Positions 4,410 to 7,208 of a DNA stretch of 41,819 bases are shown one piece after another. The translations under genes and the position numbers were made by a program. Numbering within the stretch: position 1 is the first letter of the stretch; the number at the start of each line of letters is the position of its first letter. This stretch comes from a virus (taxonomy: Duplodnaviria; Heunggongvirae; Uroviricota; Caudoviricetes): IMG/VR virus record IMGVR_UViG_2721755721_000002; one strand, 5' to 3'. The notes below the pieces were generated by a model. It did not search any database and was not told where the DNA came from. It saw nothing but the letters and a program-made list of their open reading frames with translations.

Positions 4410-7208
4410 ATGTGGGGAAGTGAAAACAAACAAAATCTGGACGTACTGGATCCTGTGCAGTTGGTGCGTATCGAAGCGGTACACCGGGGGTTCCTTTACC
4501 AGCATCTTTACGCTGTAGGCTGCTTACTTTTGGCGCAGAGGGCAGCTATGGACTCAGTAACTGTCGAGCTTGATGAGGATATTGAGCTGAAATCCAAACA
4601 GGAACGTCTCTACATTCAGGTTAAAACCCGTTCAAAACCTATTATGCCCAACGATGTGTCGGGGGCTCTGGAGCGATTTGTAAAGCTCAGAAATGAGCAT
4701 ACTTCGGCAAACCGCGAAGGGGTGGCTTCTTTTGTGATTATTGTAAACCAGGCGCCTGGACCGCTGCTTCAGAAGATGATTGACGATAAAAAGCTTCCTT
4801 CTGATGTTCTTATTGTCTGGCCCCAGTCGACAGCTGGACGTCACCCGGCACTTCCGCCCGCATGGAGTACTCTGGCTGATGCGGCCACATGGTGTATCGC
4901 AGAAGCAGAAAAGCTGAAATTTTCACTATTGTCCCCAGAATCCTTGATTTGGAAGTTAGCAGGATTGGTTCAGCTTGCCGCCACCGGAGGCGATACCAAT
5001 GGACAACATACGTTTTTCACGGAAGAACTTACTGAACTATTTGAACAGTTGATCGTTCAGCTACAGGACTTTCCTGCACCACCAGCACTGTACCGCCCAC
5101 AGAACGAAGAACCTTCTCTCACATCTGGTGAGCGGATCCGTATCCTTTGTGGACTCTCAGGTGCAGGCAAGACAGCTTGGGCCGCACAGGCCGCATTACA
5201 CTCCACTGCACTTTGTGCTTATTACGACACCGGTGATCTTCCCGGTCCAGCTCTGGCCAGTACGCTGGTGCGCGAGATGGCTGCTAGATTTACAGCCCGT
5301 GACCAAGACGGTTTGCGCAGGATTTTGCTCCCCGGTGCCAGTGGTTTTGAGGCTCTTAGGAGTTTTGATACCTACCTGAAAGAGCAGGGTACCACCTTGG
5401 TGCTGGTTCTGGATAACGCCCATCGTGTACCTGCGGAAAATCTACTGGATGTTCTGAATGCAACTACACATATTCGTTTTGTGCTGTTGTGCCAGCCTCA
5501 CGAAAACGTTCGCGAACTGGAGGTCATGACGGGGCTACAGCGCGAGGGCCTGCAGGGATGGAATCTCGATACGGTAGCTGTCGTTGTAAACGATATCGGA
5601 GGATTTGCCACCGCTATGGGATACGAGCAGCTACGGGCTTACACTGGTGGTCTTCCCCTGTATGTAGAGAGCGCCGCAAAAATCGCCGTTTCTGATTATG
5701 AGCGTAATGTCGATGCTCTGTGTGCTGAACTCCAGCAACAAACCCATACTGCGGAAACCGCCCAAGAAATTATTCTGTCACGTGTATTTCAGGGATTTGA
5801 ATCACTACTTCAGAGCGCGCTGGCATTGTTCAGTCTCTCTGACGTAGGGCTGAGTCGCGAAGAGATTTCTACGCTCCTAATCAATTCGCTGAACATTTCA
5901 CCAAGCAGTGCTGCTTCTTTAATTAGGAAAATGCGCGCTACTGGCACTATTGAAATTTATGGAAACCAGACCCTGAAGGTACATGATGCTGTCAGGGGGC
6001 TAGGACTGCAACATCTGGAACTGATGGATCAGGGTATATCGAACAAAGCGCTACTAGCGCTGAAAGACCTTTTAGTTGAAAGTCTTCATAATACCCGCAA
6101 TACAAAACGGTTATCGTTGTTGACTCAACTTTATATTAAGCTCAATGATGTCACGACGTTGATCGAACTCTCAGGCCAAGAAATGTTTTATGAGATGGGC
6201 GTGACGGTCGACATTCTTGCAAGCTTGGAGCGTGCTGCAACATCGGACTTATTGGGACCTGTTCATAAATTCTGGGCATTGGATGGCCTTGTTTTCGTTG
6301 AGCTTAAAGACGGAATATCCGACCACATTGCTCAGAGGTTAAACATCATGGGAGCTTTACTTGCGGAGCACAAGTTCGGCTATCAAGAAGAGATGGCCTA
6401 TGCAATGAAACGAATGTTATTTTCGGCAGAAAGCAATGATGCACGAGAAGTTCAAAAGCTGGCACAGGAAGTCCGCCCCCAACTCCCAGATGAAGAACAT
6501 AAACGCATCTTTGACTACAACCATGCCATTGCACTCTGGAGATTAAAAAAACTCAAGGATGCTGAAACATTAAGCTGTAATGTTATACAAGGGTACTATT
6601 CTTTATTTGGTATCACACCTGCTGATGTCATAGGAAAAAACGCCGACGCATTATGGAAAACTATTAATCATTCCGAAAATATGCAGGAACACTTTAAACA
6701 TATGGCTGATGCTCTGGAGTTGCTGGCCAGAATTCGTGATGCGCAGGGAAAACTGTCACCATTACTGCGTATTCATTCGATGAAGTTCTACAATCTGGCC
6801 ATGGCCCCGGAATCCATGGTCAGGGTGGGCCAAGATCTGGCGGATGAGTTTGTTGCCATAAAGGATTACGACGGTGCCAAGGAAGTCATGGAGCAACATG
6901 TCCTGCCGGTTGTCAATGAGGCAGGTCTAGTACATCGACTGATTCAGGTTCGAAGCCAATACGCAGTCATATTAGCACTATCGGGTCAGCATAAAGCAGC
7001 TGATGTCGAAATGCAGCGCCTTGCTCCCTATATCGAAGGCCTCACAGGTGTACAGCGTCAAGAAATCCAAAATCAATCAAATTACATCGTACAGCTTGCC
7101 CATAAAGCAGCAAAGACTAAATTAACTGAAGTTTTTGGTGCGGTCGGCCGGAATGAACAATGCCCCTGTGGCTCGGGAATAAAGTACAAAAAATGTCACG
7201 GTGCCTGA
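4410..7208 (+). CDS. Large STAND-type P-loop NTPase with candidate N-terminal PD-(D/E)xK-like effector, C-terminal helical repeats and SEC-C zinc knuckle; putative single-gene antiphage protein
   Basis: 932-aa ORF; Walker A GLSGAGKT (aa 248-255), Walker B [9 protein letters not shown] (aa 330-338); N-terminal VELDEDIEL...YIQVKTRS; C-terminal [14 protein letters not shown]; lower GC than flanking phage genes, AT-rich upstream. Confidence 0.75.
   Translation: [932 protein letters not shown]

Follow-up and report, generated by a model that had tools for sequence, protein, structure and literature searches.

A SecA-type metal-binding domain at the C-terminus of an Avs-like STAND protein of lambdoid prophages and plasmids: a possible accessory docking module

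The translocation ATPase SecA ends in a metal-binding domain of ~20 amino acids (aa), which mediates SecA-SecB binding, binds ribosomes, folds only with metal, and has the published ligand pattern CxCxSx6C[H/C] (10.1101/2020.07.21.215244). AscA/YecA carries a near-identical domain, and binds SecB (KD ~150 nM) and 70S ribosomes only when this domain is present (10.1101/2020.07.21.215244). SecA-like metal-binding domains are found with Zn or Fe bound; iron co-purifies with them and a conserved Ser sets the metal preference (10.1101/613315). Here we describe a domain of this type, the SEC-C domain, at the end of a 932-aa STAND protein encoded at positions 4410..7208 (+ strand) of IMG/VR virus record IMGVR_UViG_2721755721_000002, a stretch of 41,819 nucleotides (nt) which was analysed as a whole and is called the window below. 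We tentatively propose that the protein is an Avs-like receptor carried by a lambdoid prophage, in which the terminal domain, hereafter the knob, would serve as an accessory module for docking to SecB or to the ribosome.

The mechanism of Avs receptors has been described by Lee et al. 2026 (PMC13581612), in whose main text ligand binding by the TPR sensor is reported to relieve autoinhibition, to drive ATP-dependent tetramerisation and to assemble the Cap4 nuclease. The same text reports that SeAvs7 builds host EF-Tu into its complex and that bNACHT25 senses perturbation of DnaJ, and it presents host factors as an emerging theme. Bacterial STAND/Avs receptors survey most core phage proteins, and from such cases their ligand access and host-factor needs are only beginning to emerge. 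A chaperone enters phage sensing in the TAC systems as well, where SecB-like chaperones sense newly synthesised capsid or tail proteins, which compete for the chaperone (PMC11618068; 10.1101/2024.02.24.581848).

The gene was defined from the list of open reading frames (ORFs) and their translations, and comprises 932 codons and a stop codon at 7206-7208. Its product corresponds to RefSeq WP_000264572.1, named 'SEC-C metal-binding domain-containing protein', and a coding sequence 100% identical to 4410..7208 was found in NZ_CP148579. The knob occupies aa 914-931 (7149..7202, +), where Pfam SEC-C (PF02810) matched with an E value of 8e-10 and 38.8 bits (gathering score 20.4) over profile positions 1-18 of 19. 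Its CxCxSx6CH core, aa 918-931 (nt 7161-7202), reads C918-P-C920-G-S922-GIKYKK-C929-H930, with C918, C920, C929 and H930 as the ligands and S922 as the conserved Ser. When the protein was compared with PDB sequences using phmmer, the sole significant matches were the C-terminal zinc peptides of SecA (1sx0/1sx1, 1tm6 and 1ozb, the last bound to SecB) and YchJ-C (9l6b), and 16 of 20 residues are identical to the E. coli SecA zinc peptide of solved structure. With all six frames of the window translated, there was a single occurrence of the ligand pattern CxCxSx6C[HC], against none in 200 shuffles. Judged by its sequence, the match is no chance event, and the last 18 residues of the protein are a true SecA-type metal-binding domain, which would be expected to coordinate Zn or Fe.

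These results agree with a preliminary description of this DNA, which had placed a SEC-C knuckle like that of SecA at 7150-7208, at the extreme C-terminus of a STAND protein: the motif and the stop codon lie inside that range, and only two residues follow the last ligand. As a handle for finding homologues, which it had thought distinctive, the motif serves only in part; about one third of the family is without it, and it is common in unrelated proteins, our scans having returned SecA, YecA, YchJ, CBASS E2 models, PDC-S12 and some PHROGs.

The name STAND given to the protein is also borne out by the remainder of the chain. Its nucleotide-binding domain (NBD; aa ~240-400, 5127..5609, +) was recognised by the Pfam P-loop profiles AAA_22 (1.2e-7) and AAA_16 over aa 239-364. 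It contains a Walker A motif, GLSGAGKT, at G248-T255 (5151-5174, +) and a Walker B motif, LVLDN, at L331-N336 (5400-5417, +). In an alignment of 58 family members reaching down to 28% identity, G251, G253, K254 and D335 were invariant and N336 was at least 90% conserved. The NBD is followed by a winged-helix domain (aa ~480-540, 5847..6029, +), assigned from the secondary structure of an AlphaFold2 model. A pair within the predicted winged helix, H525-D526, is invariant in one alignment (A1) and at least 90% conserved in a second (A2), and may correspond to the His with which other STANDs sense the nucleotide. TPR-like alpha-helical repeats, the putative ligand sensor, make up aa ~541-909 (6030..7136, +), and the segment that joins the last conserved sensor helix to the knob is a non-conserved tether, aa ~897-913 (7098..7148, +).

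The N-terminal domain (aa ~15-215, 4452..5054, +) is of the Cap4/DUF4297 type of PD-(D/E)xK nucleases and is the putative effector. This type was assigned on a profile match together with a conserved D...(D/E/Q)xK core, and the domain shows both: the Pfam Cap4 dsDNA nuclease domain matched aa 25-77, barely over threshold, and in the putative catalytic core D55-x-D57-x-E59 ... Q70-V-K72 (4572..4625, +) residues D55, D57, Q70 and K72 are invariant among the 58 sequences and E59 is at least 90% conserved.

In the AlphaFold2 model (predicted local distance difference test score, pLDDT, 81.5), an alpha/beta nuclease comes first and a Rossmann-like NTPase second; next are a region of helical and winged-helix fold, with helices plus a beta hairpin at 514-524, and all-helical repeats at ~540-909, and a short coil and the knob complete the chain. 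A Foldseek search of PDB gave SeAvs3 bound to terminase (8dgc, E 5.5e-13) as the top match, followed by the STAND-TPR protein PH0952 (6mfv, 1.8e-11), wheat and tomato NLR resistosomes and Cdc6. The family profile matched PH0952 over aa 233-540, that is, NTPase and winged helix (E 7e-7), and MalT weakly. The Walker motifs and the modelled NBD/helical/winged-helix module both fit the STAND superfamily, and a Cap4-type nuclease, a STAND module and a TPR sensor in one polypeptide is the architecture of Avs receptors.

Library scans did not assign the protein to a named defence system. No AVAST, PD-Lambda or bNACHT model matched at E<=1 in PADLOC v2, where the matches were partial (the LmuA N-terminus and SEC-C), and the PADLOC, NCBIfam and PHROG scans returned no full-length match, only the nuclease N-terminus and SEC-C. 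There was likewise no sequence-level match to the PADLOC AVAST/Avs models or to the Avs chains in PDB. With partial library matches only, we rejected the protein as a recognised Avs1-5, PD-lambda, bNACHT, Lamassu or Hachiman component. GiPD474, the Gifsy prophage defence ATPase, was rejected as a relative, being ParA/MinD-like.

The Walker B motif of the family deserves separate mention. The usual form in STAND NTPases is hhhhD-[DE]; here it is LVLD-N, with the Asp invariant and the Asn at least 90% conserved. It is possible that this D-N form makes ATP hydrolysis slow or absent, ATP then acting as a binding switch only.

In order to follow the knob through the family, we made an exhaustive HMMER search, which yielded 735 cluster representatives, 287 of them at E<=1e-30, with full-length matches down to ~28% identity; taxon sampling comprised 80 loci. 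The preliminary description had let its proposal depend on conservation of the motif in homologues, and the motif proved to be widely kept: an ending of the form CPCGSGxK[YF]K[KR]C[HC] is present in 107 of the 120 closest homologues (49-99% identity), and of 114 full-length representatives, which reach down to 28% identity, 73 have the knob and 41 do not. By raw count the knob ends in CH in 39 cases and in CC in 32, and in one it is followed by an extension; a Burkholderiales clade has a CxCx8CxC variant (...KKCGC...). Among 71 knob-bearers the ligands and the Ser are conserved without exception (71/71), as is Y/F926 (71/71), and K927 (70/71), K925 and N-3 (68/71 each) and R-4 (65/71) are nearly so.

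Conservation is much higher in the knob than elsewhere in the protein. Mean pairwise identity is 0.74 in the knob, 0.36 in the body and 0.12 in the 30 residues ahead of the knob, and the tether varies from 19 to 50 residues across the family (median 33). Among nine 932-aa orthologues, the knob showed 293 synonymous and 91 nonsynonymous codon differences, a ratio of nonsynonymous to synonymous changes of 0.31, against 0.92 in the body and 3.06 in the tether; these are raw differences and not corrected dN/dS values. On the strength of both the identities and the codon ratio, the knob is under strong purifying selection at the protein level.

It is improbable that the knob was captured recently from the host. 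When the tail was searched with blastn against 5,426 E. coli genomes, no secA was present among the matches listed, and only a 35-nt match to YecA (E 0.8) was seen. As none of those matches relates the tail to E. coli secA at the DNA level, we rejected recent capture from host secA, whether by gene conversion or as a graft.

Members that lack the knob were also informative. Fitch parsimony on a neighbour-joining tree of the body places the knob at the root and requires ~30 changes of state, an approximate figure since the tree is a distance tree. Most of them we take to be independent losses, given that the root carries the knob and that relic motifs were not seen: within 400 nt downstream of the stop, none of the 15 knob-less loci checked had one. 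For the same reason, assembly or frameshift artefacts were mostly rejected as the source of knob-less homologues, and the nuclease and NTPase motifs are intact in these members. Two entries that are cut within the GRN/knob region (P0058 and P0110) do look truncated or frameshifted, and the tail of one (L062) is SEC-C-like but degenerate (ACVCSSKKG...). In knob-less proteins the chain mostly ends 0-20 residues past the last conserved helix, with a median tail of 14 aa and a net charge of +1, compared with medians of 52 aa and +8 for knob-bearing tails. A Streptomyces plasmid copy (L097) and one Spirochaetia copy in the sample are without the knob, and other Streptomyces plasmid matches end near aa 897-903.

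Other endings were observed in place of the knob. One clade has a conserved PPPPQW[QE]MP tail peptide, and alternative tails, the K/R-rich tails of three lineages and the Burkholderiales CxCx8CxC variant included, occur at the C-termini of L034, L038, L040, L041, L046, L048, L056 and L059, in P0164, P0238 and P0257, and in L020-L026, L036 and L064. This suggests that the extreme C-terminus of the family is a swappable short module.

We further compared body columns between knob-bearing and knob-less members. The largest difference in frequency was 0.35, the differences were mostly hydrophobic swaps, and no column tracked the knob. This column-by-column comparison thus gave nothing convincing for a docking site in cis, and a partner in trans is favoured. 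Taken over the family, the knob behaves as an ancestral, beneficial and dispensable add-on without an evident cis docking site.

By analogy with SecA and AscA/YecA, it is plausible that the knob is a partner-docking element, which is also the role that the preliminary description had offered beside that of a sensor. The TPR domain would bind a phage protein, as in the solved Avs3 and Avs7, whereupon the STAND module would oligomerise in an ATP-dependent manner and thereby assemble the N-terminal nuclease of the Cap4 type, which would degrade DNA and abort infection. On its flexible, hypervariable tether, the knob would bind the acidic host surfaces that SecA and AscA knobs use, on SecB and/or the 70S ribosome. 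Docking of this kind would station the receptor at the place where phage structural proteins emerge, newly made and unfolded, and would raise sensitivity or add a host cofactor while remaining outside the ligand-binding and catalytic core. The knob would in this way be an accessory feature of the receptor. A bolder and more doubtful version is that the receptor rides on SecB or the ribosome as SecA does, and either receives unfolded phage proteins by a SecB-to-SecA type of hand-over or is released or activated when phage proteins flood SecB. If true, a bacterial NLR-like receptor would here have drawn on the translation and chaperone apparatus independently of Avs7 with its EF-Tu, making this the second such case, and SEC-C would be a portable tag for docking at the site of protein synthesis, reused in CBASS E2, PDC-S12 and Rugutis.

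The knob could instead act on its own protein. Tethered as it is, it could fold back on the NTPase or the TPR cavity as a cis-autoinhibitory latch and hold the receptor in an off state until ligand displaces it, much as the SecA tail is reported to do; Jamshad et al. 2019 reportedly found that tail to be autoinhibitory, which would favour a latch. A tether of 19-50 residues would permit back-folding, and two residues of an NTPase helix, E369 and E371, are mildly commoner in knob-bearers (0.58 vs 0.34 and 0.67 vs 0.41). In apo SeAvs7, according to the main text of PMC13581612, extensive contacts of a C-terminal lobe and a terminal helix with the NTPase keep the receptor off. We nevertheless consider such a latch unlikely, for no body column co-varies strongly with the presence of the knob, and ~30 gain/loss changes that leave the motifs of knob-less members intact point to an off state independent of it; co-evolution with its own body would moreover be expected of a latch, rather than retention of a generic SecA consensus. 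A role in binding nucleic acid is in our view quite improbable. Here the basic knuckle and tail (net charge ~+8) would bind DNA or RNA, and so help the activated nuclease to grip its substrate or localise the receptor to the nucleoid or phage DNA. The median charge of knob-bearing tails agrees with this, as do the K/R-rich tails that stand in for the knob in three lineages, and YchJ, a SEC-C protein, is reported to bind promoter DNA (PMC13377102). That binding, however, is not ascribed specifically to the SEC-C motif of YchJ (PMC13377102), and direct binding of DNA is not known for any SecA-type knob. Knob and nuclease also lie at opposite ends of the polypeptide, and the solved Avs3 and Avs7 nucleases, as presented in the main text of PMC13581612, need no such element.

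The Cys3His site itself might be the functional part, reporting through its iron or zinc the oxidative or metal stress caused by infection and so tuning the threshold of activation. SecA-like knobs do co-purify with iron, and azide disrupts this iron binding (10.1101/613315); the iron-specifying Ser is conserved in 71/71 of the knob-bearers, and YchJ is described as responsive to reactive oxygen species (PMC13377102). Yet the redox switch of YchJ is dimerisation through Cys149 and not its knob (PMC13377102), no link between phage infection and the metal state of SEC-C is known, and specificity is already supplied by the TPR sensor, all of which makes a metal or redox sensor very improbable. 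Hardly any weight can be given to the idea that the knob is a structural cap or vestige, which only stabilises the C-terminus or shields it from proteolysis and has no specific partner. Its frequent loss without obvious replacement would suit this idea, but no other segment of the protein is as conserved over 28-100% identity, the nonsynonymous to synonymous ratio of the knob is 0.31, and its place at the tip of a disordered tether leaves it unable to cap the fold.

Docking to SecB or the ribosome remains our preferred reading, and several observations weigh against it. Knob-bearers occur beyond the Proteobacteria, in Sporomusa, Acidobacteriota, Nitrospirota, Myxococcota and Desulfobacterota. 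To our knowledge, SecB is not general in these groups, which would speak for the ribosome, or for a generic acidic surface, as the partner rather than for SecB. Much of the conservation of the knob could be the mere requirement of a 20-residue metal fold, and near-identity to SecA is therefore no proof of a shared partner. In the clade of the present protein, Ile, Leu or Val takes the place of the first Lys of the SecA KKYK segment (Ile in the protein itself); of the 71 representatives, 34 do have Lys there. Whether the ligands end in CH or CC tracks clades of the family tree, with no obvious tracking of the host. Three lineages have a plain K/R-rich tail in place of the knob, which fits any electrostatic target, DNA included. 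Finally, the frequency of knob loss implies that the receptor works without it.

An association with prophages or defence islands, which the preliminary description had proposed to look for, was observed: the family is present in lambdoid prophages, on IMG/VR contigs and on plasmids, with Gabija, Lamassu-like and ABC-3C genes among its neighbours. The exact gene is carried by 16 of 5,426 complete E. coli genomes (>=99.3% identity), where it is listed as a 'SEC-C metal-binding domain-containing protein'. Three E. coli chromosomes were inspected, and in all of them it occupies one shared slot in a lambdoid (Qin/Rac-like) prophage, between replication genes (replisome organiser and DUF977) and hokD/sok. 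The immunity and late regions differ among these three prophages while the slot is the same, and the STAND gene therefore behaves as a cargo gene. The tail-only blastn search matched 90 genomes; after the 16 exact copies came ~70 at 80-90% nucleotide identity, several of which, among the matches listed, bear SEC-C or ATP-binding protein annotations. The search thus points to a second allele of the family, diverged from the first, in ~70 further E. coli genomes. In NZ_OZ546984.1 (E. coli) the gene is interrupted by the IS3-family element ISEc52, a natural knockout.

A copy 73% identical in protein sequence and still ending in SEC-C is found on conjugative IncHI1B plasmids (pEC2-4; locus L098, 8001-10799), where it adjoins integrases and an Xre/MbcA-type antitoxin. 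Relatives were seen on 53 plasmid records and 8 IMG/VR viral contigs, and in alpha-, beta- and gamma-Proteobacteria, Desulfobacterota, Myxococcota, Sporomusa, Acidobacteriota, Nitrospirota and others. A scan of the 141 nearest ORFs at 37 diverse loci gave GajA 4 times, GajB 5, LmuB-like 7, ABC-3C MC3 4, DUF4238 2 and HerA once, these being raw counts from a crude ORF caller without a background rate. In V. cholerae, a relative adjoins Gabija-type, PIN and AbiH genes, the AbiH-family gene lying two genes upstream of the STAND gene (L006, 2465-3424). An AbiH-family gene lies directly downstream of it in Pseudomonas loci L002-L005 (~10860-11762 / 8882-9784) and is absent from the E. coli prophage; AbiH may be a recurrent neighbour rather than a partner. 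The phage genome collection gave no DNA match to the STAND gene, and a tblastn search of that collection with the motif peptide was uninformative, returning mostly host SecA/YecA fragments in unannotated 'phage' records and a few jumbo-phage ORFs.

Within the window, the STAND gene is immediately followed, at 7282-7641, by a complete type I toxin-antitoxin locus, hok/sok, with a promoter-like site at 7282-7310, sok at 7317-7491 (Rfam, 110 bits) and the end of the hokD ORF at 7641. The same slot upstream of hokD in K-12 Qin is filled by relBE, so that the position may be an exchangeable cargo site. Upstream, the replisome-organiser gene (2650-3720) has an in-frame stop at codon 143, and the DUF977 gene (3758-4166) is split into two overlapping ORFs, the matching RefSeq record annotating a frameshift. 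The prophage thus looks replication-defective with its STAND gene intact. The DicF antisense RNA (175-226, - strand), three tRNA genes clustered past the Q antiterminator on its downstream side (10407-10653, +) and a match to the small RNA STnc100 upstream of a SASA-family esterase gene (11427-11599, +) are ordinary features of Qin/Rac-type and Stx-like lambdoid prophages.

The presence of the motif is in itself not new, RefSeq having named the protein after it, and the family very probably falls inside the defence-associated STAND clades catalogued in 2026 (Lee et al.). The main text of that report (PMC13581612) mentions neither SEC-C, SecA nor zinc, and describes no SEC-C tail on its Avs proteins. 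In the literature that we searched for SEC-C together with STAND, anti-phage, CBASS or prophage, there was no discussion of the motif on a STAND/Avs protein, and the only anti-phage mention was that of Rugutis. We describe the protein as an Avs-like receptor with a SecA-type tethered knob. It offers a 20-residue module with tractable candidate partners, SecB and the ribosome, on an otherwise typical Cap4-STAND-TPR receptor, with knob-less relatives as natural controls, and opens up the question of whether immune receptors sit at the site of protein synthesis. Docking, if true, would give a function to a motif that annotation pipelines flag, unexplained, on thousands of proteins; if the knob is a mere optional stabiliser, this is one more Avs-like family on prophages and plasmids.

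Compared with the known systems, the protein most resembles SecA and AscA/YecA in its tail. It shares with them the CxCxSx6CH ligands, the flanking GRN and K-[YF]-K residues and the identities to the E. coli SecA peptide given above, and with SecA also the 'linker plus knob' arrangement, in which a flexible and variable linker leads to a knob at the very end of the chain. It differs in that the knob is borne by an immune-receptor-type STAND NTPase and not by a translocation ATPase or a chaperone, and from SecA further in the absence of DNA-level kinship of its tail to E. coli secA among the matches listed and in the Ile that replaces the first Lys of KKYK. With the Avs receptors that have a Cap4 effector (SeAvs3, 8dgc, and SeAvs7; Lee et al. 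2026, PMC13581612) it has in common the Cap4 nuclease, the STAND module and the repeat sensor. It is much shorter, however, at 932 aa against 2028 residues for the SeAvs3 chain and >1520 for SeAvs7, of which residues 1511-1521 are cited in the main text of that report, and its Walker B is of the D-N form.

The TAC systems (CmdTAC and HigBAC) offer a parallel to the proposed SecB docking, since there too a C-terminal element of a defence protein, the ChAD, engages a SecB-type chaperone, and the defence is triggered when new phage capsid or tail protein competes for it. Unlike the present locus, where no chaperone gene lies beside the STAND gene, they encode their own SecB-like chaperone, and the ChAD is an aromatic, aggregation-prone peptide in the substrate groove rather than a metal knob on the acidic face of SecB. 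SEC-C itself is shared with other proteins that have shown or candidate anti-phage roles, namely Rugutis (PMC11381338), PDC-S12 and CBASS E2/E1-E2, the PADLOC matches to the STAND protein being confined to aa 895-931. The rest of each of these proteins is unrelated, and in Rugutis, which is from lactococcal plasmids, SEC-C is N-terminal. Near the C-terminus SEC-C recurs in CBASS E2-type proteins, PDC-S12 and PHROGs 18195, 24700 and 30159, and ORFs with the motif are present in the Vibrio jumbo phages pVp-JHP1101 and pVa-21. The recurring SEC-C might serve as a docking tag common to these proteins, or be a phage imitation of one.

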